NCBI RefSeq assembly: GCF_963676685.1
Contig: NC_092349.1
Location: forward strand, 54,622,001-54,686,000
Direction: 5' to 3'
DNA length: 64,000 bases
Source: Mytilus edulis
Lineage: Eukaryota
Position 1 is the stretch's first letter. The number at the start of each line of letters is the position of its first letter. The notes beneath the pieces were generated by a model. The model saw only the letters and a program-made list of their open reading frames with translations. It did no database searches and was not told where the DNA came from. Positions 24,555 through 63,869 of the stretch are shown here, in pieces. Made by a program: the position numbers and the translations under genes.

Positions 24555-26161
24555 CAGGTTGGGCTCAAGTCATGAAACATGGGGTGGTGCCAGGTTTGTG
24601 GGATGAACACGTTTTTCTGGGGTCGAAAAACCCCACAAAACTGGGGTAAAAAACTTCGTTCATAGTTTTCACATAAACTGTGAAAAACCGCACCATGTCA
24701 GCTGTTGCGGTAATCTTTATCCAACATGAACTTTTGTTTACGTTAAGTTGTTTGCCATGGCAATATTTATTCTTTTGTGTAAGTCTCAGGACAAATGGGC
24801 TTCATAACCGGAAGTGTCAACATCAAGTCATTTATCAATAATATCATATCATTTCTTTACTTTCTAGACAAATTGTCTTTCTCACTAACTTTGCCGACTG
24901 ACATTACTCCATCTTGAACAACAATGCATGAGCAGTATGAAACAAAGCTTTCTATTGGTTGATTAATCTTTTGACTTTTGTTAAATTCTATGGAGGGCAT
25001 AAATAACAGAACAATACCAAAAACTGTTTTTTCATTTTGTATCGGAGATGCTGAAATTATCTCCCTTTGCAAGAATAAAGAATGACTCAAAATGAACTAT
25101 ATTACTGTGTAAGAACATAATAATTAAGTGAAGATGTAAATAAACCAATCTTATGATGATTTAAAATATAGTTTCCAACTTACTATATATTTTATAGAAT
25201 ACTTTTGCTATTCTTATGGAAGAATTATACCTTTTAAATGAACTTGTTGAAATAGAGTTATAAAAGAAATACAAGAAAAGCTTATAATCGATCATAGAAG
25301 GGCGTTAAAGTCAGTCAAATTTGATAAAAACTTGTGTGTGTGGTTGATATACAATAAACTACATGCTGTCACATATCAATACAGATGTCAAATCCTATTA
25401 TAACAAAGAAGCATTATATACATACATTATTATAAAAGAAGAATTGTGGAGTATATAAGAATAAAAAACATGTTAATAAAATTGAGAATGGAAATGGGGA
25501 ATGTGTCAAAGAGACAACAACCCGACCAAATAAAAAAAAACAACAGCAGAAGGTCACCAACAGGTCTTCAATGTAGCGAGAAATTCCCGCAACCGGATAA
25601 CTATATTCGAAGAAAGAACAGACACAACTAAATGTTTTTATTCAATCTTTATATTATAAACTTTATATATACATTCATTACTTCTTTTGTAGTTTCTCCA
25701 AAAAGGGGTGACTGGTTACATCTCCCTTGCATGGTCGTTTACAAGCATTTTGTTATATTTCTATTATAACTCTATTTTAACAAGTTCATTTAAAAGGTAT
25801 AATTCTTCCATAAGAATAGCAAAAGTATTCNNNNNNNNNNNNNNNNNNNNNNNNNNNNNNNNNNNNNNNNNNNNNNNNNNNNNNNNNNNNNNNNNNNNNN
25901 NNNNNNNNNNNNNNNNNNNNNNNNNNNNNNGACTTACACAAAAGAATAAATATTGCCATGGCAAACAACTTAACGTAAACAAAAGTTCATGTTGGATAAA
26001 GATTACCGCAACAGCTGACATGGTGCGGTTTTTCACAGTTTATGTGAAAACTATGAACGAAGTTTTTTACCCCAGTTTTGTGGGGTTTTTCGACCCCAGA
26101 AAAACGTGTTCATCCCACAAACCTGGCATCACCCCATGTTTCATGACTTGAGCCCAACCTG
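24555..26161. mobile_element. Foldback DNA transposon with ~730-bp TIRs and 5-bp TSD, spanning the assembly gap
   Basis: 24555-24785 is the near-exact reverse complement of 25931-26161, and 25197-~25282 matches 25742-25830. TTTAT flanks both ends (24550-24554, 26162-26166). Termini CAGG...CCTG. Confidence 0.85.
25831..25930. other. Assembly gap (100 N)
   Basis: Run of N. Confidence 1.
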
Positions 26162-26750: not shown

Positions 26751-27739
26751 AAACTGTTTCGCAATTACCTTTTTTTCTATTATTTTAACATCATTAATTG
26801 TCCTTTTCTAATATCAAGGAAAAATCGCACGAAAAACATGGAATGGATTTATGTTCTCTGTTTTCAAATTTAAATATTTTTTAGATGAAGTTGCTCCTTA
26901 ATTCAGTTCCTTCTTATGGTGTTTATATTTTTCCCAATTCGTTCACTATGTCTGTAGGGACTTTTCTTTTGGTTTTAGATTTCAACAATCGTAATCTATT
27001 CTATGAATATAGCTTGTAAATTATTATTACAAAGTAACGTATTTCGTAAGTAACGAGTACTCAAGGGGGATATGAATCTCGATATAAATCCAAAGGGATG
27101 TGGGTATACACCAATGAGACAGCAGCGCCATGAAGTTATTAGCCTTTTGAAACCCAGAGGACAATATATATAGTATTCAAGATGGGAGGTTTAGTGAATA
27201 GATAATTTTGGGTTAAAATATAAAGAATAGAGAATAATGAAAAAATATAAAGAATAGAGAATAATGAGATCTGCTGAAAAGAGAAAAATGGCCCTAAACA
27301 TAAAAATTTGAGAGTACAGAAATGATTTTTCCCCCGAGATATCAACATGATCAAATTCCCTGGTTCAGTTTTAACCTGGGACTTTTTAAAACTCTTTCGT
27401 TTTTAAAAATGGTAGAAATCTTTTAATGAACTGGGAGCCTCTGGCCTTTGTTAGTCTTGTATCATTTTAAATTTTAGTTAGTTTCTTGTGTACAATTTGG
27501 AGTTTAGTATTACGTTCATTATCACTGAACTAGTATATATGTCTTTTTGTTTGTTTAGGGGTTAGCTGAAGGACGCCTCCGGGTTCGGGAATTTTTCGCA
27601 GCATTGAAGACCTGTTGATGACCTTCTGCTGTTGTATGTTCTATGGTCGGGTTTTTGTCTCTTTCTTTGACACATTCCCGATTTCAATTCTCAATTTTAT
27701 TGAAATTGTACAGATTTGTTTTCTTTACATGTATTTTAG

Positions 27740-28369
27740 ACGACAGCCTGAGTCGATGGGGATACTGGAATCAGAGGTATATAAGGAGCGTAACGAGACA
27801 TTTGATTAGTTGACAGATCCTTGTTTGACAGTTCAGTCGGTTTTATCGTATTTAGAAGAAACCAAAGGTAAAGACATTTTAAATTTACTTGACTTGGGTA
27901 CCGGAACATCGCGATTCCGACCTGAATTATCTAAACATTTAAAAAGCATTCTTAATTTATTTTGTTTCGATTATGTGAATGAATGCCTACAATTTCAATG
28001 ATCTTTCATATTTCAACCAGACACTCGGAATGCTTCTAATCCTTTAGCACGAATCATGTTTGTTTGTGGTGATGCAGAACGTCTTCCATTTATAAATCAG
28101 ACACGATGAACATAATTTTCGATAAAGGCACAACAGACTCTTTACTCAAAGATAAAATAAAAGGAAAAGAAAGAACTCATTCAGTGCTGTCTTAAGTATT
28201 TAGAGTTTTATGTTCGAACGGAAAGCTGTTACTATTTACAAACGAAGACCCGGATGTAACAATTCCTTTCATGGAGGAATCGTGTAGGAACTGGAATATT
28301 TCAATTAGTTACAAAATTTTAAACAATGAAAGTATTGAATATTTCATGTATACTGTATTGAAAAAATAA
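27740..28369 (+). pseudogene. CSKMT: Class I SAM lysine methyltransferase pseudogene, CSKMT/METTL12-like
   Basis: After a tttag| acceptor: YWNQRY..ETFD*L..LLDLGTGTS..FCFDY..FVCGDAERLPF..IIFDKGTTDSLL..VFRVL..GKLL.FTNEDPDV. It carries 3 stops and 2 frameshifts. Confidence 0.75.
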
Positions 28370-31498: not shown

Positions 31499-31514
31499 AC
31501 TTTCACTTTCGTTT
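31499..31514 (-). promoter_or_regulatory. ISRE / IRF-binding element upstream of the RLR gene
   Basis: ACTTTCACTTTCGTTT, read as AAACGAAAGTGAAAGT on the minus strand (GAAANNGAAA consensus). It is 1.8 kb upstream of the ATG. An acceptor at ~33262/33276 implies a 5' UTR intron. Confidence 0.6.
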
Positions 31515-33299
31515 TAAACCGGTTTTCTGTAAATACACACACGTCAAATCGTTAAATGGATTAGATCACACGGGTTCAATGTTGGGGGTTGGGTGGTGCT
31601 GGGCTTAACTATATAATGAGTGGTAGGATCAAGTCGCTGGAATATGTCAGTATTACAATCCAATATTTGTTGCAATTATCACAAATGCAAGAAATTGGGT
31701 TTCCAACTATATAATATATTTTTACTTGGGCATTGCACGTTATCAACAAACTTGAGTCTAAACCGACTATTCATATTTAAATGGTTTTATACCATAATAA
31801 TAATATAAATAATAGCGCAAGTCAGATACCATCTGGTTCGGTTACGTAACAACGATTCATCCAATTCCCCTTTTTGACTTCTATAAATATAACCAGTCTT
31901 GTAAAATTAGAGTACGAACAATGCAATTACCCATTATTCTTTAAGTTCTGTAAATGGAGAACCAATTTTGTTGAGGCATTTCCCTATGAAGAAAAGGGTA
32001 GATTAAATGTGGTTTAAAGCTAGCTAAACCTCCAAAGACTTGTACATTTGTATACAGTTGCTTGATAGCAACTCCTTCTACATGTACATGTATTTAATTT
32101 CAATTATTTTCTTATTATTGAAATTAAATAATAATAGTTGCTATCAATTTCACACTACAATCAGAGACGAATATAAAAAATTCAGGCTAAACATAAGGCA
32201 TAGGTATCGCCTAATTCACTCACGGACGTGCGATGTCGCAGGATGTGTTCTAGTATAACAAATAAAAACGTCGTAATTTAGTAACACATTGCAGGCACCA
32301 AATTTTTTTTCGCATTTATACTTAGTCATATCTCAATTTCTTATATCAACATGTTCAATGTGATATGAGAAATATCTGGTCATGCAGGAAATAGATTACA
32401 GTCTACACACATTAGAAAGAAATCAATGTTTATGTCATTTGTACTTGCGCACATACAAAGTTCTGTTATCCTGCATCTATGAACGGTCATGTTTGAATTC
32501 CTGATTACTTTAAGTTCGTGGATAATTTTGGGGTCCTATTCACGGTCTGCGTTGTGTATATGTCCGAAAGCTTTATTTTTTCTCCCGCTGATATTACTTT
32601 ATACATGTAATGCGCTCAATGTTTTTTTAAAGAATAAAGTTATATATTGAATTAAAAAATTTCTTCAAAAAATATTAGGGGTAACAGCAAGATGTTCTTG
32701 TTATGTAATATATTTAATATGAATTAGAGATAGAGAACTTATCAGATTTGGAAGTTAGGTTTCCACGGATCCGATATAATTGAAAACATACTAGATAAAT
32801 AAATAAACTCATCCTAGATACCTAGATTGGATTTATGTATTTTTGCTAGACGAGTGTGTCGTCTACAACGAACTCAATAGTGACGCTCGAATCAAACAAG
32901 GTGAAAAGCCTAAATAAAGTACGAAGTTGAAGTGTACTGAGACCAAACATTCCTTAAAGTTTTGCCAAACACAGCTAATGTAAAAGCTAGTATTATATGT
33001 CTACCTGTATCAGATATATATCAATACTGAAAACCATGGAACATGCAATGTAGACTTTTTTCAGTTATCACATGATTCATTTATCCATCTACCAAATATA
33101 GCCATATTTGCTCTTCAGCTTTGAAATCGATTTGAGCTTCCAACAGATTCGATTTGTACGCCTTTTTGGAGTTTTATGTTTTATGTAAAAACAAAAAAAA
33201 CACATACGTCTGGTCACAAGATTATCACCCTGCTATCTTGGATAAAATTTTTCTTTCACAGGTTTGCGTTTTCAGGATAAATGATGTTTAAAAATTAGT

Positions 33300-33936
33300 A
33301 TGACCTCGATTGTTAGTTCTAGGGTTACTAATAAAACACACTATGCACGTCTTGGCCATGCTACTCAAAACCTGTTACCAAGGTTTCTACAGGAAGTATT
33401 GTTCCGTTATGAAAACCCATTGCATATATATTCCACATGCAAAGGAAATTATCAACTGTATAAATATTTCCTCAAATCGGCAGACTGGACAAAAATCAAT
33501 GAAGCGGTAACCACAGCATCATTCAGGAATTTTGATGTTCCTCTTATTTATACTATCTTACGAAATGTCCACTATACTACACTAATGCCAACTAGAAAAT
33601 GGGATGATAAAATTGACCCACTACCACATGAAACGAACACAGGGGATGACTTAGAGAGATGTCGTAGAACAAGAAATAAAATCATACACAGGGGAAACAC
33701 AGAGGTCAGTGACCAGGAATTAAAGAACTATTTTGACGAGTTTAGAGGAATTGCAGGTAGATTACAGGTTATCTGTAATAAAAAGAACAATGAATTTGTT
33801 ACGGAGTTTGAAGATCTACGAACTTGCTGTATGGACGAAGAGACAGAACGAAAATACTTGGAAGACATAAAAGAATGGCGACAGAGAAGTTTAGAGTATG
33901 AAGACCAAATTTCTCAATTAAAGGAGCACCTTGCGG
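33300..33936 (+). CDS. Exon 1 of the RLR: DZIP3/hRUL138-like HEPN domain plus coiled coil
   Basis: HYARLG...[12 protein letters not shown]...[11 protein letters not shown]....[24 protein letters not shown]...YF contains the HEPN R-N-x3-H motif (RNKIIH). Confidence 0.85.
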
Positions 33937-36900
33937 GTAAGTTTTAAAATAAATGCATCATTATGACAAAGAAACAAACACCATCTACATTGATTATTAT
34001 ATATAATTTACTTTTATTTATTGAACAGATTTGTTTTAATACAGTGTCTTGTTGTAGTGTATAAAATGTAAACACACAATCATATTATCACATCTTGTAT
34101 TAATAATATTAACAGCACACATGACTTAAAACAATTAAAAGCCAAAAAAATGGACTATTATACATTCTAATAACTTCCAAATAAAAGAATTATCAGTATT
34201 CAATGAAATTGAAAATAACTGTTACTGAATGAACATGATAATTAACAATGTTCACTTTCATATTGTGTATCCAATGATATCAAGATTGTCGGGGTACTTA
34301 AAATAATATATAATGTTTATAGTGTAAAAGGTGTCACAAACTATCCATGTAAATTGCCATAAAATGGCACTTCTTACTTATAAAAAGAAAACACCATTAA
34401 CTGTATATATAGATGACAAGTTACTACCGTTAAAAGACATTTCACTAACATAATTAAAGTTCTAAGTACTAGTTCAAACTCAGTGATCATGCTTTCGTTT
34501 TTGTTCTACAGCAATTGGTATATCGGAAAAGCAGGAAAATGAAAATGGTAAGTACATGTATAACAATTTGAATGCTCCATACCATAGGTGACTAGGTTAG
34601 TTAAAACATAGGTTGTACAATACACAAACCAAACGAGCAAATCAGAAATGTTAATACTCTTTTTATGAGGTTATGTATTGTCAGCTGAAATAATGTGAAC
34701 AGTTTTTAATCCTTTCCAACCTTGATTAAGGTTTTATTTCTTTTTTGCAACCGTATTTGAATTTTGTTAGTTTTATTTTATTCGGGGTTGTGATATATAA
34801 TAGATGAAGATTTGGTAATCCTTCGAGACCACAGGGAATGACCCACAGATTTTGGTTTGCATGGTTCATGTTTCTCAGTCTAGTTTTCTACGTTGCCTTG
34901 TCCAGCTGTATCTTAGTTTCAATATTTGAAGAAATAGACCAGAACGGATAAAGATACAAATTTTGAAACGCGTGATCTCCTGATTAGTTGTCACATAACC
35001 ATTTTGTCATCGTGAGACTGTATTTGACGTTTTATAATATGTTCTTGTGTTTTCTGTTTTAAATTGCCCATAAGGGTAGTCCGTATAATCAATTTGAAGT
35101 TATAATATGAAGTCATTTACAGGTACACAAGACATCATTTTATAATCAAAGTTTATGAATTTTAAGATAAAAAAAGTCAACATATGTTGTTTTTTTCTAT
35201 GAAGCTTTTTCTTTGTTATTTATTTTTATATTCATGTTCTTGCGTGTAAACCATTTTTGTGTATATCAATTGTGTCAAATTATATAGCCATGGCTATCAT
35301 TGTTTGTGCTTGGATTACATTTGTTTTTATTGGGGGTATTTTTTCAACGTATGATAAATGATATCCGGTACATGTAGAAAAACGTTTTATTCTGAATTAA
35401 ATTTCACCGTTACGCCCGGAACTGAAATGTATAAAAGCCAACAACAACAAGTATTTGAGAACACAAAGCTAAAATCACACGAACAGAATAGCCACAACTT
35501 TTAAAATTTAAAAGCAATATACCAACTTCACCTGCATATGGGATATTAATTTCCAACTTATTCGGTATTTAATAGCAGGCAGCTGCTAATCAGACGTAAT
35601 AAAACGTCACCACTATCTGAGCATAAAGTTGATGAACCAGGGGAATGTCAAAGAAAGTGTCGTCTTTTTTGTCTTTTTCTTAAGATACCGAGACCTTGTT
35701 GATAAATATTTGGTATCAACTTCACAATTAATATATGATTTTTTTTTATCATTTTTACCTGAGAAAATGCGTTTTTCAAACGTGTCATGACAATTTCATA
35801 ATTTAATTAACTGGCAATTCATTGATAGCATGCATCATTAAAATCGTCCCATGACCTTTGATCTGAATAATGAGTAGATTATCCTTAACGGCAGAGTCGA
35901 AATGGGGGTATGTAAAAATCGTATTCATCAAGTATCCTCAAGACCAATCATTTGACAAACGTGAACAATCTGATTTGCGGATGCACACAAAAGGAACCTT
36001 TAAGTAGTAATCGACAGCATGAACAGTGTAATGTTAACTTTTCGTCGAGGATTATTTTTACATTGTTCTATATTAACTGCCTATAGTAGACTAGATTTTT
36101 TTTATTAAATAATATTGTATACCGTTTGCAGTTGTTTTCATCAAAACTCTACAAGACACCACATGTGTTGAAGGCAATACAGTAACTTTACAATGCGTTG
36201 CTAGTGGATGTAAATATATAGCAGAATGGTCGAAGAATAACGAAGAAATTTTATACGACAGGAAAAACAGTCAGGAATGTTCCAATAACATTATCGATGG
36301 AATATATGTTCAGGTCTACAAGCACGTTATTCCAAAATCTTCATTAGAAGATAGAGGCACATATACCCTTAAACTTGGAAGTGAAACACGAAGTTGTGTG
36401 CTTTCTATCACAGGTTTGTTGAATGTGCCAGTTCATGCCCCAATGATAATATTTTGTGCATACTATCCTTAGCGAATGCATAATTGAACGATTTTATTCA
36501 CAAAAGCTCTTTAATTTTTACATTTAATTGAACAATAAAAGTTTTAAATGATAAGAACACAAAACTTAAAAGTACACTACAATAGCGTCTTTTTTTTTTT
36601 GGGGGGGGGATTAATATCATGAATCTGCTAAGTTGATTTTGTCGAAACAGTGATAACAATTCTGTACAAGGCTATCTATTTTGTTTGATAGAGCAAGCAA
36701 CTAGTTTCTTTTGCGGCGATTACATTTTTATGAATATTGAATTTGATGAAAATTACAACAAGGAATGACCTTTCGTGTTTGCACCGGAGTGTCGACATTG
36801 ATACTCCTGTGGTTGTAAAAAGGCATTAAAGATACCAGGCATACATGTATCACTTCATATGGCTGACGCCTATTTCGTAAACATAAGGCTATAAATCTGT

Positions 36901-39900
36901 GCCACTCGAATCCAAACAGTTAAAGTTAAACTGCAATAATACAGAGCAAATTGCATTTTCATCATATACAATGTACCGTATTGAAATAAAATACATTTAA
37001 ATCCATTTTTTTTTTGTCGGAAAAGCCTTTACCAATAAACTTGAGAATGTAAACGGGAAATTTGTCAAAGAGACAACAAATCGATCAAAAAACGGAAATC
37101 AACCACAGGTCGCCAAGTCAGGAATATGATAGGTTGTTTTTCTACTTTATCCGTTGATTTTGATATCATTTGGTTTCGTTCTGTCAGTTTTTATGGATTT
37201 TTTTTTTGGAGTTTGGATTTTTTTTCAGTCATGAATTATTAGAAGGAGTTATAGGAAAATTATTTAGAACATATTTTTGTTTCTATTCTGGCTTTCATAT
37301 ATATGGTATATTGACATTCAGTTACAGATAGTGAGTGAGATACCAAGAAAAAAAGTTGTACACAAAGCATAAAATTCTAGATAATGATTTGCATTTAAGC
37401 TGTCGTTTATAGAAAAAAAGATATATATCAACTTGAATGGCCAGGTCTTACAGATACTATACTGTTGTTTCTGTGAAATTGACATATGGTGTATGCGTTA
37501 GTGAGACAGCAACCAATAGGATTTCAGACAGTTTATGGTATTGCATATATATTGCTCAATACTTGCTATGCGATTTATATAAACTTATGTTTTGTTCTAT
37601 TTGGGTCAATAGAAAGGAAGCCAAGTTTAATTAAACTGCGAAAATACCAAGAAGAACTGGCTGAGATAGCTTTGACAGGTCAAAACACTATTATTTGTTC
37701 TGGAACCAATGCAGGAAAGACTTATGTTGCTTACCATATAATTGAGGATCATCTTATTAAGAACCCGGAAGGTAATGACAACAGAAAAGGTACCAATTTT
37801 TCTGCACATGATTCGCATTTTGACAAATAATGTTGCTATGGTTTGTTCAGCAATTCTCGCGGCCAACATATTTGAAAATTAAATGAGATACACTATTTTA
37901 AACAACATAAACAGTACTAATTTTTTCTACACCAGATGCGCATTTCGACGATCAATGTCTCCCTGGTCTATTCAGCAATGCTCGCGGCCAAAATATTTGA
38001 AAATTAAATGCGATACATCATTTTAAACATATCAATAATTAACAAAATAATGTTTGCGTTAGGTAATAAACAGTGTTTGAACAGGTTATGCATTTCGAAA
38101 AAATTATTAACTGTATCAGTTTTCAGTATAAATTAAAACTATGGCACATGATCACTACTATTTCTAATTAAAATTATATGTTCGCACTTGTTCATTTAAA
38201 TGCAACAAACATAAAAAAAATCTTCCTATTGTAGGTAAAGTCGTTTTTATAAACAAGACCAATGTTTTGTTAGAACAACAATACAACAGAGCATGCAAGA
38301 CTTTTAAAGATTTAAATTTTCAGGTATGAGAATGTGTATTATTAATTGATTCTGAATGGTATAAACTTGTATGAAATGCTGATTATGCTTAAAAGAATCA
38401 ATTATACATAAGTTGTGAAATAACACTTTATACACGATGGACGTTTAAACTTAAACATATGAAAGCATGAGATGTATCAAAAATTAGAAAACGTCAAAAG
38501 CTTACATGTAACGACAAAAATAAAATGGACTAAAAAGAATAGCGAATTTACATACTGACATAATTGGTGTCACTACCAAATCACTGACTATTGCGCTGGT
38601 GGTATCATCGGTGATCATTAATTCAACAGAAGTGGTATCGACTCAGTGCTTGTAAGTGAGAAAAACACTGATATAATTCAGTCAATATAAAGAATGAAAA
38701 ATCAGATTAAAAAAATCATGATATTGATCTATGTATTGAATATTATAACATGCATAATTTTGTTTAGGGAAAGATTTATAAATGGGATGCAAGTTTAGAA
38801 GGGGAATGTGAACCCTTTCCAAGTATTGTACAACGTGTATCATTACTTTTCTGTACTCCAAAATCCCTTTGTAATCACCTGGACGAAAAGTCAAAGAATA
38901 AAATTTCGATGGATACGTTCACACTGGTTGTTCTAGACGAATGTCATCATGTGATGCGAGGAAACCCATTCAACGAAGTTATGAATTACTACAGGAAACA
39001 CAAGTTTGAATCCGAGTCCGGCAAGATACCACAGGTTTGTAATAATAACTGTGGAACTGATTTTCTTAGATATATTTTTACAGAAATACTTCTAAAATGA
39101 TGATTGACAAGAATTCAAAACAAAAGAATTCCAATCAAATTGTCAGTAAATTGCATATTGAGACGAAAATGTAGGGTGGAGGTGGTAAAATGGATTAATA
39201 TGTTTTATATAAACAATAATTCACCCTAGTTACTTTTCTTTTTTTTCGTCTTTTGCAAACGCCGTAAAGAGTTATCTCCTATATCACCAGACTACTAGTT
39301 AAAGAACCATTAGGTACAAAATGTACAAGATAATACTACAATTTTTTATGGTTTATTAGTTAAATCATTAAAAAAGAGAAATAGTGAAATGATAAACCTG
39401 TTTGGTTCATTTTTGTCAAAATTATCCAAGAAACATAGCATACTAATTATTCACTTGTAAGTGAATAATTCAACCTTATTAAATTATTTTTCCTGTAACA
39501 TTCAATTTAATCCTTAGCTATATATGATTAACGCATAAGCCAGGCGTGTTCAGATATTAAAAGTTAAAGAATGCCAAAATTGAAAATGATACAAGGGGTA
39601 ACAATTTGTTTGACTGCTTAAATCTACAAAAAACATATTCTCTTACACATGTAGACACGATGATAAAAATGTTACATGAAATTAAGCAGACCTATACAAA
39701 TCCAATTAGAAGTGTCAGCTATCTAATTCAAGCTGTTAACATATCGGGTTAAATTACCGTCCGCAGTCTTTAACAGTCAATGTTAAATCAGATTGCGTCT
39801 AGACTAAAATACACATGAAATGCTGATACATACTACCGAGTATATTCAACGTGAATAGTTTATTTTAATCTTTTATAATTTGGATAACGTTTTGTTTTTA

Positions 39901-42900
39901 TATAAATTAGTATTTGAGTCAAATTGGTGTACTTGAATATGACAACTAAAAACCCTTTAACATTACAGGTATTAGGTCTTACTGCTTCCCCTGGAACGAA
40001 TAGGGCTGACGGTGGATTTTCTGCTGTCCAACATTTGAAAAGCCTGATGGCAAATATGGATGTTTTCAAGCTGTCAGTTGTCCAGAAAAATGAACAAGAA
40101 CTGTTAGAATATTCATCAACCCCATCAAAAGGTAAACATAAATTATGTGCATATATTTAAGTTTTTTAATGTCATATTATATAATTGTATTTTAATACAT
40201 GTACTTTAATGCTTTTTCTTTGAATGAATTATATTTCGTGTGTACGTTGGGGGGCTGGTTTCTTTTATGTCCAAATAAACAACACTTATGTTAGATGAAA
40301 TAGCAACATTTTTTCCAACATTTTTATGAAATCGAGTTTATAAATGACATGTATCAACTGAAACATAAAGTTATGATTATTACCAGAGATATCAAACTAA
40401 CAACAAATATTTTTTTCAATGATTCCCATGAAAAAAATGTTTGAAATTTGAAAACAAACTTCACACAAACTGTGAAGACCTTATACAAAAAAAACGTAAA
40501 GTCAAATCGAAAAAGGAATTTGGAACGAACAATCTTTAGCTCAATAGGATGATTTTTAGCCTTCATTGAAACTCTCTTATCGGCTGATCACCGATACACT
40601 CGTGTTAAACATTGTATAGATGACGCGTAACTATACCAAGAGACGCATGTGTTATTATGATTACATATAAAGGTGCAACTGTTTTCTATATTTCATATTA
40701 CTTAAGTACAAATTCGTTCAGCGGACAGGCTACACGACCCTGTTCAAGGCATCCTTCTTAAAGCCATAACACATGTTGAGGGTGTGTTTAGAAACAGGAG
40801 AGGTACGATATAGTGTAACTACTACTTTAAAGAGCTGTACAAACATGGCATCTAAAGTTGTACAGTTTAAATGCAAAATGGATATCTGCTTATTCAAATT
40901 GATTTTCTTTTGAAATGTAGATTCTTACAACTAGACTCTAGCTATTCTCTTAATAAGTAAACTGTGAATAGGAAATAATTTTGCATAATTTTTATACTTA
41001 AAACACAATAATAAATAAAACATTTTCTTTAAGGTATCAGTATACTATGTTAGATTAAAATGAATGCTTTCCGTCAACTGTATGTAATTTTTTAGTGACT
41101 TCATTTTTGATGGAAAATGGCATCGACACGAAGACTCTGTTATCTGCCCTAGGAATGCCACCGTTTGTTAAATCAGAGAAAAAATATGTACAGTGGATAA
41201 GTGAAACAAAACGAAAAACAGAAAGCGTGATGTTAAAAGATGCAGATGTACCCCGTCTTATACACCTTTGTCTTCGAATTTTAGAGGTACATTGACATGT
41301 TAAAATAAAGCTGGTCCGCATAAATATTTATTGCATATGAAAAAGAGGAAGATAACGAGTGGTAATAAATTAGCGTAAGACAAAGGAAAGAGTTAAACAA
41401 CACAGTATCTCCGAAAACGAACATCAGACAAAAACACTAAATTAATCAAACTGAGTTACACGAACCCCTCTAATATAACTGAAGGTTGTTTCATCACTAT
41501 TGAAAGTTAAGTAGTTCGTACTTAACTAGGAGAACACATACAGCAGTTATCGTGAAAACGTTAGTATACCGTCCATACAACAGAAGCAACCCAAGTGTAT
41601 GGAAATACTATAAAATACCTTGTTTATACAAGACAATACATCTTAGTAAATGATAACATTACAATAAAAATAAATATGAAAAATTATACAAGAAAAGACA
41701 CATGCAATATATATATCATACCGTAGGAACAGAACTGGGAGCAACAAGGCAGTTGCAAGCTCCTGAAACTGTTGAAGGTGGCAAACTGTTTAATGCGAAC
41801 CTAGTTTACAGCCGAAATGTGTTGGAAGTCAGTGAAAAAAATATAGAATAAGACAGTAGAAATTTAAAATCATGTACAGGTTAACTGCTGAAACAGCAAA
41901 CACACATTTTAGTTATTTGCTCTACATGTAAAACAATTTTGCGAATATTACTTTACAGGGAGATAACTCTGTAAAATCAGCTGAACGTTTTAATAACTTT
42001 TCGTTGTTAAAGGAATATAAAGCTTCTCAATGATAAAAAAAAATAGTGTGTGTCAAACTGCTATACAACTAGTGTAATTTTTCTGATAAAATGGTTGGTT
42101 CAAATTTTTGAAATTTTTATATTTTTGTCAAAGGGTCAAAGTAAATACTTTGTCAATATTTTATGAAATTAAACGAGCCAAATTGATTTTATTGAAAGTG
42201 TTAGGTACCACCTTAAACAAAAAATATGAGATGAATGTAACTTTGGTTTTTTTTTATCTTTATTTCTAATATTCAGAAGTATCCCGTGCCACCACTATAC
42301 ACATATTTGACTAAACCCAAAACTCAGTAAGGATAAGAACTGTTCATTCTCGATAATTTTATGTGAAACACTATATTGCAGTTATACGTAGAATGTCTGG
42401 AAATGAATTCATTACTTGAAATTGAAAATGTCACCGACTTGCTTACTGAGGCATATGAAATGTTTTCTTATGAAAGCCAACAAGCAAATACTATAGAAGA
42501 AAGACAAATTATAGAGGCACTAAAAGGTAAGCTTATTCTGTTAATAAAGATATATTTAAAAACGGTATGTAAACAGTATTTGGATTCTTCACCTATTATT
42601 CCTCTATATACACAACTAGCATTCACCTTTTATTCTTTAAAAATGATTGTCATACTCCATCAATTTACGAAATAAAATTTACAATGTTTTTTCAGTGTTG
42701 TATTTATTTGAAAGTTTACTATTTGTTTGATCTTATATTCTGTTTCGCGATAGCATTCACGTGTATTAAATTTTTAACGGTAATTCTTGAGTGTCAGTGT
42801 ACAAACAATTATTGGTAAAATTTTCTGGTTTTGTTGTAGATGTAACATCACTCCTTGTGGAGTTGAGGAATGAAGTTGAAGGTAACCCCGACGTTAATGA

Positions 42901-45900
42901 AATCATTAGTGCACTTCTGAAGGAATATGAAATATTGAAGGAGAATTCAAGATTTCTTGTTTTCGTTAAAACAAGAGCATCTGCGAAAGCTTTAGCAAAG
43001 AGACTACCAGAGTGTCTAAAGGCAACTCATTTAACTGGAGGAACAAAATCAAAAGATAAAGCAGGTAAAGTTGTTGTTTTAAAATAAAGTGTTTTGCTTG
43101 CTGGTTAACTTACTGGGGTTAACGCTAACAACCATTCGTCAATACGGGATATATGTCAATGTATGATATTTCGTGCATTGTTTCATTGCCCGTTTCATAC
43201 ACATCTGTTCTTAAAATGAAGAAGAACAGACAGAAAGTAGAATAGAAATGTAACATCCAAACCTGCAGATATCTATTTGACATAATACCCTTACAATCTT
43301 AGTCATGTTTTTACATAAGACGCCATTCGTTTTTACTGTTTAACAGTCGTTAACATCGATGAGAAGCTGTTTCCACTTATTGACTATTTCCATGATTGAT
43401 TAAAAACAGGAGTATACCGCCTACCCTGTGAATCTGACATTAGAACATGTAATGAATACAATTAAAGCAGAATCATGTCTATACTATATACACGACAAGC
43501 ATTAGACTTTCAAAAAGGGCTAAGTCGACAATGGAAAATGGAAAGTGCTCTCGCTTTGTAGATTTTTTCATTTACTAGAATAGCAACGTGCATCCATCAA
43601 CAAATTTTACCACACACGTGAGGTCACACGTTATGAAGTTGTATATATCGTTAACGTTGCTGTTTACCGAACTCCAGAAGATTAGACTATTTATAGATAA
43701 AAGTTACCTGTGTACCAATATCATGAATATGCATGATTAATGACCAGGCAAAATCTAATTGCTACAATAGAGAGGACAAATCCGATACTCTACGGGATTG
43801 AAGGACATTTACTAGGTTTGGATTGTCCTAACCAATCAATAAACTTTGATTATTCACGTCTCGTAATATCTTCCAATCAGGTAGCAAGAAAAATTCACGC
43901 ACTGACTGTCCATCGTTCAATTCTTAATATCGACTCCTAGAAGTCGATAATTATACTTACTTTGCAGGAAAACAAATGAGCTTAATCAATGCATGTTAAC
44001 TTTCAGGCCTTCACACCGATGAACAACTTGAAGTTATGGAACGTTTTAGAGAAGGAGAACATTTGTGCATCGTTGCAACGTCTGTTGCATGCGAAGGACT
44101 TGACATCCCACAATGCAATTTGATGATCAGATACAAATTTAGAGTAGATGAAATTAGTAGCTATCAAATGAGAGGTAATATTTAAAATTCTGTATACTAA
44201 AGAGTTTGACTAAAGCGTACACCTAATTGAGCATTGAATTGATAGATGCATTACATGTTTTATTATCAAACTAAGACAAATGGATTTTAAAATTCACAAG
44301 CAGCTACTTAAAATAATAATACGCCTAACAAAAACAAACTGAAAATCTAAAAAAGCAAAGGTGACTTCACATACTATATAAAAATAATGTTCACCGGAAC
44401 GAAAAGCACTGAATAATATCATAGTTTCATAGTTACAACTGAAAGCAGGAATTTTCAGATATGAATAAAATTTAAATTTCATAATAGAATAAAAATAACA
44501 TAAACAAATGTGTTTATTTAATTAATTTTGTATTAATTTACAATTAAATGTCAGGATAAATTCAGTCAGTTTGGTTTTACTTTCGTTTCCGGATGATCTG
44601 TTGAATTCATTGTATTGGCAATCTTAATTTGACACGTAAAACAAGATTTAGGGTCTCTTTGTCTAATTTCAACGTCCAAACTACTTACAGCGTTGTGCAG
44701 TTCTATAGATCTGAGTGTCGGGTATGCGTCTGGATGTTGGTCCATCATTTCTGTATTCTATATTTTTTAGGCAACTTTTCTCTGTTTCTAATACCTTTTG
44801 CCCATTTTTCTGTTTTCTTTATACTTTTTGCCCATTATACTCTATTCCTTATTTTTGAGGGTTCATTATTATCTATTCTTTACATTCATTTGTAAAACTT
44901 CATAGTACTGCACCTTACTACCATATCTTGTCAAATAATATAAGAGGAATATCCAAATTGATTTGGAAACCATTTGGTCGAAAGTCCTCGTCAAAATTAT
45001 CGATTACTTTAAGATATGATTTATGCAAACAAGACTTGTTGGAAATGTTTACATGACCTGGTCCTTTATATTCGAATTTTATTTCGAGTTTTAGCCAGGG
45101 ATAAAAATAACGAATAAAACGCCCAAGCCAAATGAAAATGATAACACATCTATGGGCCGCATGAATTATTTCGATTCTAATAACACAACAACGATATTAA
45201 AAAACAACTAGAAAATATGTATTCAATCCTTTGGATTCTGAACGCAATGTTTTTTCGTTGGCTTTTATTTACAGTCAAATGTACGTATATGAAGTAAATA
45301 GTTGACTTGCAGCCATGTTGACTTGTTGAAACCAAATGAATGTATGAATTCACATAACATTGAAAAAGTCAACAGTTCTATACCACTTTTTGAAATTCAT
45401 AAATCGATTAAGAAAAATCAAATCCGGGTTACAAACCAAACCTGAGGGAAACACATCAAATATAAAGGGAGAACAACGAAACAACAGAAACATTAAAATT
45501 CAACACACACAGAAACGAACTATAAGATAACAATAGCCATCTTCCTGATGAAAAATGAACGTAACGGAATGATCTTCAGCTTGGGGTATTATTTTGTTTT
45601 GACATTACATGAACCCGCTTTTCATATTTTAGGAATATAATTTTACCTTGATTTTATACAATTTTTGAGATCTTATGCAATAATTCTTTTCATGCCGTAT
45701 TTATGGGCATTATGTTTTCTTGTCTGTGCGTCTGTTTGTTTGTTCGTTCGTCCGTTCGTTCCGCTTCAGGTTAAAGTTTTTGGACGAGGTAGTTTTTGAT
45801 GAAGTTGAAGCCCAATCAACTTGAAACTTAGTATATATGTTTCCTATGATATGATCTTTCTACTTTTAACGCCAAATTAGAGTTTTGACCCAAATTGCAT

Positions 45901-47096
45901 GGTCCACTGAACATAGAAAATGATAGTGCAAGTTTCAGGTTAAAGTTTTTGGTCAAGGTAGTTTTTGATGAAGTTGAAGTCCAATCAACTTGAAACTTAG
46001 TTCCCTATGATATAATCTGTCAAATTAGAAATGTTATCCCATTTTCAGGGTTTACTGAACATAGAAAATAATGGTGCATATGGGGCATCCGTGTACTTGG
46101 TACACATTCTTGTTTGTTATGCATTAGAATAGGAACAACGGTTCTGTAGTTACTTTTTCAATTTCAAGTTGAACACAACGAAATCCACTAAGTTTTTGCA
46201 CAAAGCTTACGATACAAGTGGATTGACGTGGAAAGTAAATAATGATAGCCATATGTATTTACACATCTGAGTCTGTGATAAGTATATACGTATCGAGAAT
46301 TTTATCACGTTTACATAGCAAAACAAACATGTCATACTAAAATTGGACACAACATCCTGCAAAGATTTCAAAATGGTTGTAATTCATATAAATGATTTTT
46401 TAAAACTCAAGTCAGAATTTTTAGGAGTGATAATTTTCTTTTATTTTTTACTCGAATGACGTGCTTAACATAATAGTATTTTATTTTCAATTATTAGGAA
46501 GGATTAGAGACAAAAAAGGAAAGGAGGTCATTTTGGCGTCAACTGAAGATTTTGAAAGGGAAACAAAAAATATATTAAGACAATACTACATGAAGGAAGC
46601 CATTGGACAAGTAATTGACCTTGATCTAACTGCACATATAGCAATAGCAGAACGAGGGATATATGCTTCCGAAGTTCAGGAACGACTACTCCAACAGCGT
46701 CAAGCGGACAGTAAAACAATTGGTGCATTCACAGTTAATTGCAAGTTCTGCGGAAAACCAGTAACTGATGGTCAATACATCAGGCACATTAAAAGGAAAA
46801 TCTTTATAGTATATGACAAAACAATTTTGACAAAAATAAGACGCGAACCTCTAAAAAAGATAACAAAATTTGACACGATAAAGAAAACGGAAAGAGTATT
46901 TGGGAATATTTGTGGTCACAGTTGGGGTGTAATACTTGTGTATCAGCAATGTGACTTCTTAGCAATATCAAAGGATAAAGTAAATTTTTTTGATAAATAT
47001 TCAAAAGATTTGGTAAAATTTAAGAAATGGCCTGAATTCCCTTATCGCATTGACGAAGTCTCGGATGAAGAGGTGCAGCGTTATTTGGCACAATGA
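33300..47096 (+). CDS. RIG-I-like receptor helicase with N-terminal HEPN (DZIP3-like) and Ig domains, no CARD; 13 exons, ~1018 aa
   Basis: Exons 33300-33936, 34512-34547, 36132-36413, 37613-37771, 38235-38323, 38768-39034, 39969-40131, 40707-40802, 41096-41286, 42382-42526, 42840-43064, 44007-44174, 46498-47096 total 3057 nt, all GT-AG, with no stops. Motifs: LRKYQEELA (Q), GTNAGKT (I), DECHH (II), LGLTAS (III), FVKTR (IV), [16 protein letters not shown] (V), QMRGRIR (VI), and CTD CKFC...CGHSWG...FKKW. Confidence 0.9.
36132..36413 (+). CDS. Exon 3 of the RLR: I-set immunoglobulin domain (absent from the ORF track)
   Basis: [25 protein letters not shown]....EWSKNNEEI...[18 protein letters not shown]...CVLSIT in a 282-nt phase 1-1 exon. 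Confidence 0.85.
45688..46113. mobile_element. HINE copy (181-bp-core family) in the last RLR intron
   Basis: Homologous to 28425-29250, with ~2 core units. Confidence 0.75.
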
Positions 47097-51610: not shown

Positions 51611-51722
51611 ACAGAATATTCGTCTCACAATAATGTTCCAAATATTCTAACTACGATACCGCCCCTTTCCCCAATTTTGACATTCCGAATAAAAATTGTT
51701 ACTTGTTAACAATACAAACAAT

Positions 51723-54669
51723 TTTTGACTCACTAGAATGGACTTTCATGACGGAAACACTGAAACGGTTTGGATTTAAAAGTAGCTTTATCAGATGGGT
51801 TGAAACTATGTATAACGACATTAAGGGATGTATCTTAAATAATGGGTGGGTCTCAGGTCCGTTCAAAATATATCGAGGAATACGACAAGGGTGTCCGATT
51901 TCAGCGTTACTTTTTGTTATAACAGTAGAATTAATGGCAATAAGACTTAGAAGTAATAAAGACTTTAAAGGTATAAAAATTACATTAGATGGAAAATCTT
52001 GTAATTTAAAAATTTGTCAATTAGCTGACGATACAACACTTTTTCTTCAGTCAAGGAAAGAAATAAGTTTAGCTCTCAGTATAATTAAAACCTTTGGAAG
52101 TTTTTCAGGACTTAAGCTTAATAGAAATAAAACGGAAGGGGTATGGTTAGGACGACTAAAAAGTTCAAAAGATAAATATGAAAATATAAATTGGACCGAC
52201 AAACCAATCAAAAGCCTTGGAATATATTTTGGGTATGACAAAAAAGAGTGTCAAACATTAAATATTGAAAAAGTGTTGGACAAATTAACGAAACTTGTAG
52301 AAAGATGGGCAAAAAGAAAGTTAACACTACTTGGAAAAATATTAGTAGTAAAAGCTCTTCTTCTACCAAATATAACCTACATTGCTGCTAACAGTATCAT
52401 TACTAAAGAAAATCTACAAAATATAAATAAAATCTTATATAAATTCATTTGGAATGGAGGAAAAGATAAAATAAAAAGGTCAATAATAACAAAAAACTTC
52501 GCAGAAGGGGGGTTAAAAATGATTGATATAGAATCCTATATAAAATCTATACATTTAAAATGGATTATAAAAATATTAGAATCAGAAAATGCAAATTGGT
52601 CTGTATTATCAAAACTATACCTTAACAAGTTCGGAAAAAACCTTCTTATTTTCAAGATGAATGTAAATAACACAAAATTGCTAGATAAAAACATATAGAA
52701 CAGTACACCAACCTTCTCTCAAGAGATGATAAAAACATGGATAAATGTAAATAATTGTGAAAACAATCATCATGATCAAATCGATAATTATTTAGAAATC
52801 AGAAAACAAGTTATATGGGGAAATAAATTCATAAAATTTCAAGGAAAATGTTTGTTCTTTGATAACTGGATTGATAGTAACATACTATATATAAATGACA
52901 TAATAGATAAAAGAGGAAATATATCAGAAGAAATGATTACTTCAAAATTAAGAAATAAAAGGAATTGGATTTCTGAATACTCAAAACTAAACAAATCTAT
53001 ACCAAAGCAATGGACAGACAAATTAAAATCAGAAGAATCATTCAAAACAAAAGTCCACATCAACCGAACAAAAACTAAACTAAGAGATTGTAATGATGTT
53101 CTAACTATTAATGCTAAAAACATATACAATTTAGTATTAAGTGTGTCAAAAACAGAAATACCAATAGGATTTTTGAAATGGGAAAGAGTCTTAAGCAAAG
53201 GGAGACTAATAAATGAATTTAAAGACTCTATTAAATTTAATTTTGAATATCTTAAAGATAATAAAATAAAAATGTTAAGGTGGAAATTAATGCACTTTAT
53301 TTTGCCAAATGAGGTACTGCTTTTTCAGTGGAAAATTTCACAAAACAATTTGTGTTCATATTGCAATGAAATGGATAATTATAATCATTTTTTCATTACA
53401 TGTTCATATCATAAAACATTCTGGAAATCAATGAAAGTTTTACTCAAAAAAGTCTTCATAGGCGAACATGTAATAAGTCTTCATTCGTTGGTTATAGGAT
53501 ACAAAATTCATGACGATGCATATTATGCGCTAAATCATTTGCTTAGCTTAATGTTCTTTTCAATCTATAAAACACATTATGTTTCCAATAAAAAAACCAA
53601 AGCAGTAGACACATTAAAAAATTTTGAATATGAGGTAGAAAATACTGTAGAACTATATAGTATGACCAATATAGAGATCAGCAGTTTATTAACAAAGGTG
53701 TTGAATATTTTGAAGAATAATAATGAAGTCATTTTATAGTTAACTTAAGCTACATGTATAAAAAAAAAACAGATTCTATAGATCTAGATTATGTGTGATT
53801 GTATGTGATTTTTTCCCCTTTATTATAAATGTACTATACAAGTAATTATCTATAATTGCCATTCCTAAAGTATGAGTATGTATGAAAGTTATTGAAAGAA
53901 ATTTGTTTGTAAAATGTATCATGTGACACTGAACAAGTACGACTGTATGTGCAGAAGTTTGTTTGTTCAGTAATTATTACTGCAATGTATGAATGTTAAT
54001 GTGGGTAATTCAGATATAAATGAATATGTAGGTGTGTGTGTGTGTGTGTGTCTTTGTCAATATATAGGTATTTCGACACTTGTACGCTACATCTGTATGC
54101 ATTGTTTACAAAATTTGTCAGGTAAAGGTCACGACACGGTATTTATCTGGGTCAAATCAATAACAAATTTAATAAAGTGCAACTATGAAAAATATATTTA
54201 CACTCCAACTTACCTTTTCGCAATATTATTCAAAGCTTTTAAAACCACATAGAAATTAATAATCCAAATTCTCGAAACACTTCAAAAAATATTGTCCCAA
54301 CACGAGGAACAGAAAAGTCGTGTGAGGTCACTTGACCGCAATTCGTTTTTGATTAGTTAATAAAAGAACCCAAAAAGTCATTCCGGATGAATGATCAATT
54401 TCCGTAAAAATATTATTGTGTAGATATTTGTTTATGAATATATCAAAAAATACTTTTTGTGAAGATGCAAAGACTATTTGTAACAACTATAATAATAGTT
54501 TAATATGTGAATTAAACCAATGTAATTTATTAGTTAATTTTACTGAATATTATCCCTGGGTATTCAGTGGTAATTTAACAGGGAAACTTGATGAAATGCT
54601 GTACACCAAGTTTAATTGTTAAACAGCAATATGTGCAATAAAGAATCAATTATAGTGTTAAAAAAACAA
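51723..54669 (+). mobile_element. 5'-truncated L1/Tx1-clade LINE (RT plus CCHC finger, 3' UTR, A-tail)
   Basis: ORFs 51703-52698 and 52726-53739 are in the same frame, separated by one TAG. Motifs GIRQGCPISALLF, QLADDTT, SLGIYF and CSYC..D...HFF.TC. AATAAA at ~54637 is followed by an A-rich tail. TSD AACAATACAAACAAT at 51708-51722 and 54670-54684. Confidence 0.92.
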
Positions 54670-60315: not shown

Positions 60316-62429
60316 ACAAAAAGCACCTGAACATTACTTAAGCTGAGATCATAAACATGACTAGTTACATGTACATGTAGGAATGAAATAGAGTTTACAA
60401 ATTGGTATGGTTTTGACAAGAAATGTATCTTCCAGGCTTAACCTTCATTTTATCAAAATTTTTACTAGAAATTATTTCTATAAGAATGTATGTCATTTTG
60501 ATATTCTGCAATAACTCAAAATGGATAGACTGTCATGACTCTAATGAAAATAAGGCCAAATAAAAATGACTCTAATGAAAATAAGGCCAAATAAAATTTT
60601 ATTTAGACTGTCATTTGCTTACCACTAGAACTTTATTAATTATGTATTTATAATACACATTTATTGTTTCAAATTATCATTTTGGCACTGAGAAAACAGG
60701 AGGGGAAGGGAATGAGGATTTAGAACTTCAATTTTATTAAGCCTTACTACATTTTACTTGTTATACATTTGTTATACTAAGAATTGTCACTCAAATCAAT
60801 CATCAACAGACTGATGACTTTGGCTACATGATACAATATGTGGAACCATATTCTCTTTATAGAATTCAATAAGCTTTTGTTCCATATTCTCCCAATACAA
60901 TTTGTCAAATTTTACTTCAACTGTGAGAAAATCATTCAAAAGGTAAATTACCAAATCACAATTCTCATATTTACAAATTCCCATTTGTCCTTGTATTTGA
61001 GAAAAATACTTGTGGGATTTTTTCAATTGCATATTGTTTTGTTCATCAATTTCAAGGAAAAAATCTTTGCTTGCACATGCCTCTCTGATTGTTTTCATTC
61101 TCCATTTCCATGGACATTTTATCTCTAGTACACATTTTTCCTCACCAAGCTTTGTGCACTTTTTAACAAGTCCATCAGGACTAGCACCAAGAAATCCAAA
61201 TTTGTCACATAAGAATATACCACATTCTTTTACAAAAAATTTTTCACCATATTTTAATCTTCTGTGAGCAATATATTTTTTTCTTGCTATCGGTTCATGC
61301 TTTCGTCCCCAAATTAATGGTGCCACATTGATTATCTTACCCGGCTTAGAAAAAGATTGCACTAATTTATCGACATCTGCTTTTTGCGTGAAACAATAGA
61401 GTGAAAATTTGAACTTGTTATTCTAAATTTTCTGGTATCAAACCAAAGTTGATTTTCAGATTGACCTAATGTTCTTTTTTCTATCTCATCAATTACTGTC
61501 TGAGGAATATTCACAAATTTGTCGAGCAGTATGGTCTCATTAATGGTTGGTTCTTTTTGAACAATTGACATAATGTCTATGTAGCTGTCAGATTCAAAGT
61601 GTAAATATTCAGAGGTCTCAACTTCTTCAAAATTAACTACATTTATGTCACTATTAATGTCATAAACTTCACAACTTGGGGCAACTAAATCAAAAATTGC
61701 TGGAGAATAATTCAAATTTCCTAATTTAGCTGTTAATAGTGATAAAAAATCCTGACCTTGGTCAGTAATGGATTTTTTCACAGTAAATTTATTTTTCTTT
61801 ACATTTGCACATGGTTCATTTCCACCATATTTTAACTTTTTGAAAGATATGTTTAGGACTTCTTGAGGATCTTTTTTCCTTTTACCTCCCTTATTCCAAT
61901 TACATGGTTTTGAAGTACATGCAGTATTTTCTTTTTCCTGTGCACATGCCTCAAGCTTGAAGAGAAGACCTGCGATATGGGTTCATCCTTCAACTAGGCT
62001 GAAAATAGAAATCAGAGTTATTGTTCATTTTAGAAGAAATGACAAGGGCAGTTAAGAGTCAGTAAAATCACAAACTGGTTTGAAGTTGAACAATAATGGT
62101 TTAAACCACCAGCAAGCTAAACTTTAACAACATTGTGTTTTGAATGGAAAGTTGTCTCATTGGCACTCATACCACATTTTCTTATTTATATTATGATTTT
62201 TGTAGCTCGCCTGACCATAAGGATAATGTGAGTAACATTAATGATTTTTGTTTGCTTTCACAATCACATGACCCCCCCCCCCCCCCCCCCTTTCCCTTTA
62301 AATCATGTATGTTTAACATGTCACTTGCATGTATTACATATTTCTTTTATCATGTCTTAATTTTTCATAAATTTAATTATCTGTTCATATTTTTCATTAT
62401 TTGGTATATATATGTATGGATTCATATAT

Positions 62430-62630
62430 GAGGGGGGATAGGAGGGGTCCTGATCTCGAAATCCCGGACTTAAAAAAACGAAATCCCGAGGTCCCGAATT
62501 TAAATAAAGTAAATCCCGACATCCCGAAATCCGAAAAAAAGGACTCCCGGATCCCGAAAGGGTCAATCCCGAAATCCCGAGCTTAAAAACACCCGATCCC
62601 GGAGTCACGATAAAGGTCCTATCCCCCCTC
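62430..62630. mobile_element. Sola-like MITE with internal ATCCCG repeats
   Basis: ATAT|GAGGGGGGATAGGA ... TCCTATCCCCCCTC|ATAT. Confidence 0.8.
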
Positions 62631-62746
62631 ATATATACATGTATGCTAAGCTAAGTTAAAGTGTCAACTTAACACTATAATCACTCTGGTAATGTCACTT
62701 GGGTTTTTGTGTAATTTGATGTTTGGCCTGTCAGTGTCACCTGTTA

Positions 62747-63018
62747 GGGAGCTACCATTTGATTTTTATGGGGAGGGGGGGGGGGGGGGCTATGATGAAA
62801 AATTTGTCCTGCTTTTTTTAGTTGTTACATGTATCTCAGCCCTGCCTTTTTATTTTTATTTTTTACTATATTTGGTCCTGCCTTTTTTTACAAGTTTATC
62901 CTGAGGTTTTTTGCACAGTTGCTCATCCTGCCTTATATTTTACTCAAAATTACTATCCTGCCTTTTTGTTTAAATTTCATGCTAGCTAGCCCCCCAAATA
63001 AATCAAATAGTAGCTCCC
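62747..63018. mobile_element. Zator/Harbinger-type MITE
   Basis: TTA|GGGAGCTACCATTTGATTT ... AAATCAAATAGTAGCTCCC|TTA, with internal ATCCTGCCTT repeats. Confidence 0.82.
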
Positions 63019-63869
63019 TTACTATATATTTTTTTAAAGCAAATTTGAATTATGGAGACAGGGATGGTTTTAAATAAAAGAAAGTCTTGTGTTGAAAACT
63101 TATAAGGCCCAACTTATAATGAAAGTGTTAAATAAAAAAAAACATACATACCCAGCTGGACAACTACAGTTGGCCTTGAAAACTACAACAGGTGTTTTCT
63201 TTGAAATTAAAATCCATTGTTGATATGGTCCCTGTTGTTTCATTGAAGGGTAACACTTTGATCTGATGTAACAACTTTCACAATCATCATCAATACTGTT
63301 TATCATTAAGTCATGAACATAGTTCTCTTTAAAAAAGTTATATCCACGGATGAACTGGCGATAGCATAACATTTGCTCATTGTCCCCAGTTCTGTGACTG
63401 CTGTGAATGAGAAAGGATTCCACATCCTGATGGGAAACAAGTGGCAGCAAAGATAGATCACTAGTCTACCCAGAGTTTAGTTCATTATAAGGGGGAATAT
63501 CAACATTGTCATTAGTGCAAGAGTGTTGAGAAACAAGAACTGTCGACAGTGACGCAGTCACACCATTGTTTGTTTGATTAGTTTCAAAGGCTCTTCGTGC
63601 AAGTTCGTCTTTATTCCCAGATATCTTTGCACTGCTTGATCGCAGGAATAATACTAAATCACTTTTCTTCAAAGTTAAAAAGTCCTCGACAGTAGTTTTA
63701 TCATTTATGTCTCCTATTTTCATTAGTTTACTGATTGTTTACACTCGTTACGGAAGAAAAGTAAGTGTCGTCACCTTCACGCAAGAAAGACAACTCCGAT
63801 AACGACCGATAACTCTGTATATCGAAAGTCGGGAATATATGCTTTGGATTTCAATTATTTTTGCCACGA

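Follow-up and report, generated by a model that had tools for sequence, protein, structure and literature searches.

A HEPN domain spliced to a RIG-I-like receptor helicase in the mussel Mytilus edulis

HEPN RNases typically have an active site contributed by two protomers. In the OAS-RNase L system dsRNA sensing leads, via a second messenger, to a dimer-activated HEPN-type RNase, and in Cas13 and Csm6/Csx1 pairs of HEPN domains are gated by nucleic-acid sensing, Csm6 being a constitutive dimer under allosteric switching. Among RIG-I-like receptors (RLRs), RIG-I and MDA5 line up on dsRNA and canonically have a four-cysteine zinc site in the C-terminal domain (CTD), and in RIG-I CARD2 packs on Hel2i.

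The mussel gene described here belongs to the same gene clade as the lophotrochozoan IG-type (L4) RLRs of Yao et al. 2022 (PMC8998645), who name IG as the N-terminal domain of McoRLR12 and 14. Its close relative P0004 is McoRLR14, and P0010, P0020 and P0026 are McoRLR9, 12 and 11, respectively. Neither the main text of that paper (PMC8998645), figures aside, nor the supplementary material searched contains the word HEPN even once (0 occurrences in each), so that the nuclease domain of mussel IG-type RLRs went unremarked in its wording. Database Pfam annotation already places PF18738 on mussel HEPN-Ig-RLR proteins. PMC3710099 describes this DZIP3/hRUL138-like HEPN family and how it has expanded in bivalves, the passages concerned naming no RLR partner, and the mussel domain shares with the family its domain membership, the Rx4H motif, the N-terminal effector position and the bivalve expansion. 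HEPN-NACHT NLRs of cnidarians and the pearl oyster (PMC8260672, PMC9646362) carry the same HEPN family, likewise in the N-terminal effector position. A brachiopod protein with the architecture HEPN+coiled-coil+TRADD-N+RLR, found as one row of the Figure 4 source data of PMC8195603 (2021) and left without comment in the related passages, resembles the mussel protein in having an N-terminal HEPN and coiled coil followed by RLR helicase and CTD, but carries TRADD-N where the mussel has Ig and comes from another phylum. A search of paper texts, mostly from outside subscription journals, found no description of a mussel HEPN-RLR.

The mussel protein shares with RIG-I, MDA5 and LGP2 the succession Hel1-Hel2i-Hel2-pincer-CTD with intact motifs, but it has a HEPN-helix-Ig front instead of CARDs, and one CTD zinc cysteine fewer; having no CARDs, it would therefore not use the CARD-MAVS route. 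It would work in a manner like OAS-RNase L, from dsRNA sensing to a dimer-activated HEPN-type RNase, without being a member of that system: no second messenger takes part, ankyrin and pseudokinase domains are lacking, and sensor and nuclease form one chain. The likeness to the prokaryotic Cas13 and Csm6/Csx1, in which a HEPN pair is also gated by nucleic-acid sensing, is similarly one of operation, as the mussel protein has no guide RNA and no CARF domain. Since the HEPN is fused to an RNA-sensing helicase without the usual signalling domains, it is likely that a single protein both detects and destroys viral-type RNA. The reading that we prefer, tentatively and at just short of an even chance, is a dsRNA-gated RNase, in which RNA binding by the helicase would pair two HEPNs through the helix that follows them and thereby switch cleavage on.

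Gene structure, transcripts and the helicase part

The window, the whole 64-kb stretch of DNA that was analysed, is AT-rich, intron-rich animal DNA. Its + strand contains a gene of 13 coding exons, from an ATG at 33300 to a stop after 47096, with GT-AG introns and a product of 1018 aa uninterrupted by stops, identical over 1018/1018 residues to RefSeq XP_071179675.1 ('DHX58-like', Mytilus edulis). The domain order is HEPN (residues 1-178), helix (180-214), Ig (225-318), RLR helicase, pincer and RIG-I CTD, without a CARD. Coding exon 1 (33300..33936), supported by Pfam, RNA and a structure model, encodes the HEPN (to about residue 178) and the heptad helix (180-212) and ends in a phase-1 donor; RNA puts the start of the exon at an acceptor at 33262. 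A 36-nt linker exon (34512..34547), with GT..AG joints on both sides in RNA run X2, leads to an Ig (I-set) exon (36132..36413), recognized by PF07679 on full-length relatives, by RNA and in the full-length model. The exons that follow were established by genomic reading and RNA: a helicase exon with Walker A (37613..37771; Walker A at 37702-37722), helicase exon 5 (38235..38323), helicase exons with the DECH box (38768..39034; box at 38936-38947) and with motif III (TASP; 39969..40131), exon 8 (40707..40802), exons 9 and 10 in the Hel2i insertion region (41096..41286, also placed by alignment to RIG-I, and 42382..42526), exon 11 with Hel2 motif IV (42840..43064) and exon 12 with motifs V and VI (44007..44174). 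The last exon (46498..47096) encodes the pincer helices and the RIG-I CTD (PF11648, E 1.5e-14; RNA). All thirteen lie on the + strand.

Splicing of the HEPN exon to the helicase exons as one transcript is confirmed. A 2399-nt contig of run X2 crosses joints at 33935/34511, 34546/36131 and 36411/37611, each GT..AG, with no mismatch; a 1534-nt contig of run X1 contains the HEPN, Ig and DECH exons together, and in contigs of runs X3, X6 and X8 the Ig exon follows the HEPN exon after an interval of 36 letters. X1 and X2 belong to one study, and X3, X6 and X8 to three others. Of these runs, X8 is recorded as RNA, and X1, X2, X3 and X6 are presumed to be RNA. The contigs of X1 and X8 have 44-57 letters 5' of the exon 1 acceptor without genomic placement. 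A gene model that wrongly fuses two genes is rejected by the spliced, in-frame RNA contigs. Three raw-read RNA runs labelled as the matching species (X21, X23 and X24, 6-18% of each read) gave zero cover of exons 1-4 at 93% likeness, which may reflect low uninduced expression, absence of the gene from those animals or another species.

Residues 326-1006, comprising helicase and CTD, align to RIG-I (E 3e-63); motifs I, II, III, IV, V and VI and the Hel2i insertion of RLR-type helicases are all present, and PF11648 scores 54.7 bits against a cut-off of 25.6. Searches of exon 1 and of full-length relatives found none of the CARD families, the front end being HEPN-helix-Ig. The CTD has three cysteines (901, 904 and 958) against four in RIG-I, no cysteine standing where the alignment places RIG-I's third, and because of this its RNA recognition may be atypical. 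The 1018-aa protein has no kinase or pseudokinase region, the hallmark of the RNase L/Ire1 KEN arrangement, and neither of the Dicer hallmarks, PAZ and tandem RNase III, only the helicase part matching Dicer. The ESM Atlas returned only RNA-helicase clusters for the whole protein, and no usable match for residues 1-320.

The HEPN domain and the helix behind it

Exon 1 matches the Pfam family HEPN_DZIP3 (PF18738) at 51.1 bits (cut-off 27, E 1.6e-13). Within it, the R, N and H first noted at canonical spacing are borne out by R-N-x3-H at 33672..33689 (+; R125, N126 and H130), an R-x4-H motif lying at the end of helix 114-129 according to the genomic reading and an AlphaFold2 model. The span first given, 33660..33900, was in the right region and clipped at both ends, since the 19-residue motif peptide occupies 33642-33698 (+) and the helix extends to 33935; both lie in one + strand ORF (33285-33947, 220 codons). 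By itself the pattern RNxxxH has 12 occurrences in the six frames of the window and is not beyond chance; in its context the motif is, because of the Pfam score and the conservation of R, N and H.

The AlphaFold2 model of exon 1 (mean pLDDT 90) is all-helical, helix 114-129 ending in the motif and H130 opening a loop. The HEPN active site is described as lying at a helix end and the start of the next loop, with Rx4-6H and a polar residue after R (Anantharaman 2013, PMC3710099); R125, N126 and H130 show this pattern, and the all-helical character of the model and the motif position agree with the DZIP3/hRUL138-like HEPNs. These three residues have a demonstrated catalytic role in RNase L, PrrC and RloC (PMC3710099). 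The top VIA structural match is Csm6 (4rgp, Z 7.9, rmsd 3.2, 115 aligned), below the noise level of the tool for helical bundles, and 1wwp, 3c8g and 3l0i, listed as HEPN structures in PMC3710099, match weakly (Z 5.4-6.2). Foldseek with the HEPN model against the PDB gave no match at E <= 0.001, and the HEPN exon had no significant sequence match in the PDB. Two acidic residues are kept in the HEPN exons of the same genome, D79 in 28/29 and E119 in 29/30, either of which might correspond to the published upstream acidic residue of helix 2 (Ex3[KR]).

Among the 30 best HEPN exons of the mussel's own genome, R is kept in 28/30, N in 29/30 and H in 29/30, R being written in five synonymous codon forms and N and H also in several each; in an alignment of 71 HEPN rows, R and H are both kept in 67. 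Fifteen HEPN-RLR database proteins were examined, of which 14 have this HEPN type and show R-N-x3-H in 14/14, Walker A in 14/14 and DECH in 13/14; the fifteenth has a second HEPN type, its motif also intact. Against the three paralogs on contig C9, dN/dS of the motif helix (residues 115-135) is 0.01, 0.03 and 0.07, that of the whole HEPN 0.18-0.28 and that of Hel1 and Hel2 0.10-0.18 where dS is unsaturated, dS being saturated for several domains in the comparison with paralog g3. As a whole the HEPN domain is not more constrained than Ig or Hel2i in pairwise dN/dS. Positive selection on the whole HEPN domain is rejected (upper bound <0.45), as is a pseudogene (no stops, overall dN/dS 0.13-0.21). 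Degeneration of the motif in orthologs, which would have spoken against catalytic competence, was thus not seen in the alignments or in dN/dS, and with the motif invariant in RLR-fused relatives and under strong purifying selection, the suggestion that the domain may be catalytically competent is well supported at the sequence level. An intact motif is the family default and therefore indicates constraint rather than catalysis: it is present in 138/176 domains and missing from 38/176 (150 representative matches listed of 1834 proteins matched), and in the pearl oyster it is intact in 194/202 HEPNs (PMC9646362). By themselves, motif and helix are ordinary for the family, and the value of the locus lies in the fusion. 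Where two HEPNs stand in tandem in one protein, the motif of the first is often degenerate, as in active/inactive pairs.

In related RLRs, Death or CARD domains take the place of the HEPN-helix-Ig segment. HEPN and helix might accordingly form a homotypic module without catalytic activity that recruits other HEPN-cassette proteins, or else an RNA binder, the motif being a binding surface. The substitution for Death and CARD would suit such an adaptor, as would the 82 or more matches that the HEPN exon has in the same genome, the existence of one relative fused to CARDs and the motif-less copies, but R, N and H rank with the best-conserved positions and are retained in all 14 RLR fusions, and we regard this possibility as improbable.

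The helix behind the HEPN (33840..33935, +, and into exon 2; residues 180 to about 211-214) is, by AlphaFold2 model and alignment, a predicted coiled-coil arm generic to the HEPN cassette. Its a/d positions (183, 186, 190, 193, 197, 200, 204, 207 and 211) are hydrophobic at 0.69 against 0.16 elsewhere (71 aligned sequences, column shuffle, p 0.003), forming about four repeats with polar residues at 183 and 197. The heptad pattern that had been noted thus stood; its immediate succession to the motif did not, two further HEPN helices (138-158 and 165-175) filling a gap of about 50 residues. Such periodicity fits a coiled coil or an amphipathic helix packed on the domain, and does not tell them apart. 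In the full-length model the distal half of the helix (residues 191-220) has pLDDT 50-57, and a homodimer prediction of residues 1-212 gave ipSAE 0.00 in both runs with the alignment unused, which is evidence neither way. The dN/dS of the helix is 0.95 (0.30-5.5) and 0.33 (0.05-1.1), the third pair being saturated, against the much lower values of the motif helix.

The same helix follows the same conserved junction on non-RLR HEPN exons and proteins. In 36 long proteins scanned, the partners of the HEPN cassette were nSTAND3-ankyrin, AIG1 GTPase, IIGP GTPase, CARD and VWA, and 'HEPN+Coiled' appears 27 times in the architecture table of Kaur et al. 2021 (PMC8195603), with many other partners. 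The simplest reading is an exon-encoded cassette of HEPN and arm with a phase-1 donor, shuffled in front of many sensors. Because the cassette carries the helix into STAND, GTPase and CARD proteins, the helix would not be a helicase-specific relay, and the idea of an arm passing the state of the helicase to the nuclease is weakened, as the helix also occurs on helicase-free HEPN genes, is weakly constrained and is separated from the helicase by the Ig domain. A role as dimerisation arm is plausible.

Closest to the relay idea is an enzyme in which the arm always joins the HEPNs and packing on the RNA-free helicase keeps it off until dsRNA and ATP arrive. The conservation of the heptad across the 71 sequences would fit such a pre-formed dimer, and so would the top though weak structural match, Csm6, with its allosteric switch. 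We nevertheless hold it to be unlikely, given an arm that is common to non-helicase partners and loosely constrained, an Ig between arm and helicase, and a HEPN no more constrained than Ig or Hel2i. It is also conceivable, though rather doubtful, that the HEPN is a weak, ungated RNase which the helicase carries to dsRNA and which clips bound RNA only, without bystander cleavage or toxicity. Sensor and nuclease do sit on one chain, and helicase-plus-nuclease proteins such as Dicer belong to the same helicase clan, but the cassette also occurs on switches that do not bind RNA (nSTAND3-ankyrin, AIG1, IIGP), which suits an effector triggered by oligomerization better.

Relatives, genomic surroundings and an upstream element

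Full-length HEPN-Ig-RLR proteins of 1014-1030 aa were found in M. californianus, M. coruscus, M. galloprovincialis and M. edulis. Three more complete copies in the same genome are clustered on C9, and 4/8 of the CTD matches and 4/4 of the Ig matches found in this genome fall in the window gene and the C9 copies. In a helicase-CTD tree of 22 rows, from which P0038 (too short) and P0031 (no start motif) were dropped, the HEPN-Ig RLRs cluster together (93/92, not starred) within a starred Mytilus clade, to which their neighbours, Death-domain RLRs, also belong. The CTD exon (46498-47096) is 97% identical to that of M. californianus P0003, and HEPN and Ig about 70%, a gap in identity that hints at domain-level mosaicism or gene conversion. 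Two Ig-RLR database models, P0022 and P0024, are without a HEPN core, perhaps because it was truly lost, perhaps through an error in the models.

A second, distant HEPN type with a cysteine-rich insert and an intact motif occurs on two predicted RLR gene models of other Mytilus species, P0025 and P0026 (Pfam HEPN E 0.0015 and 1.2e-5, below the cut-off), which nest at different places within the starred Mytilus clade. The segment of about 100 aa after this HEPN appears, as judged by eye, to recall TRADD-N. The second HEPN type on Mytilus RLRs, together with the brachiopod protein, suggests repeated grafting of HEPN onto RLRs. Among the named database matches, HEPN-RLR fusions were seen only in Mytilus, and of the 150 representative HEPN matches listed only known Mytilus records matched the helicase; since either search had limits, this does not amount to absence.

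At 27733-28255 (+) lies a broken CSKMT-like methyltransferase copy, with stops and frameshifts, whose DNA is 91% identical to that of a copy with an open frame, situated about 5 kb upstream of C9 paralog 1. In its 3' flank the window gene agrees with C9 paralog 2, and the window locus would seem to be an ancient duplicate of the C9 region. In database model P0016 CSKMT and part of a HEPN-RLR are fused, probably because annotation was misled by their adjacency. Also in the window are a remnant of a LINE-like retrotransposon ORF2 (51634-53739, +; RVT_1 and zf-RVT), split by a stop into two open frames, overlapping YqaJ/viral alkaline exonuclease-like ORFs (60796-63465, -) typical of a mobile element, and a run of N, either a gap of the assembly or a withheld stretch, at about 25830-25930 inside the ORF 25693-26151. 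Another partial HEPN match is on the same strand at C6:54707125-54707358, about 21 kb past the window end.

On the - strand, 1.8 kb upstream of the ATG, the site GAAAGTGAAAG (31499..31510) resembles the ISRE/IRF-E consensus. Such a site was present in 21/100 shuffles of the window, so that by itself it is not beyond chance. C9 contains no more than three matches over 180 kb; they stand upstream of the three paralogs, at distances of 3.6, 5.4 and 11.3 kb and on the same strand, a placement with a chance of 0.0015 in a post hoc test whose 12-kb interval was chosen afterwards. In 4/4 paralogs the ISRE-like site is a conserved island within otherwise unalignable upstream DNA. ISRE reporters are activated by oyster IRFs (PMC5869526), and Yao et al. 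2022 (PMC8998645) found expression of related IG-type RLR genes in gut and haemocytes.

A possible dsRNA-gated RNase and its meaning

From the observed gene structure, splicing, intact motifs, selection on the motif helix, heptad and architecture, we infer the steps by which the preferred dsRNA-gated RNase would act. An IRF would induce the gene via the upstream ISRE-like site, and helicase and CTD would bind viral dsRNA and line up along it. Crowding on the dsRNA would let the generic heptad arms pair two HEPNs into a two-protomer active site, and the HEPN dimer would then cut viral or host RNA in an RNase L-like shut-off. The arm would in this case be a passive dimerisation aid that senses local concentration, not a dedicated allosteric relay. 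A search of paper texts, mostly from outside subscription journals, found no assay of a DZIP3-type HEPN or of the mussel HEPN-RLR.

More broadly, and with confidence somewhat below even, mussels may possess an expanded, virus-inducible clade of single-chain dsRNA sensor-RNases in which Death or CARD has been swapped for HEPN, a one-protein counterpart of OAS-RNase L, with the graft made on three or more occasions (with two HEPN types in Mytilus and once in a brachiopod). If so, this antiviral design would recur among animals and would be a natural nuclease triggered by dsRNA, and it would help to explain how bivalves respond to dsRNA through CARD-less RLRs. An RLR that cuts RNA would represent an output mode other than that of the signalling receptor, as which animal RLRs are usually viewed. 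The fusion would also offer a first functional handle on the large DZIP3-type HEPN expansion of bivalves and cnidarians, since in this case one knows the probable trigger, dsRNA, and can supply it cheaply in vitro.
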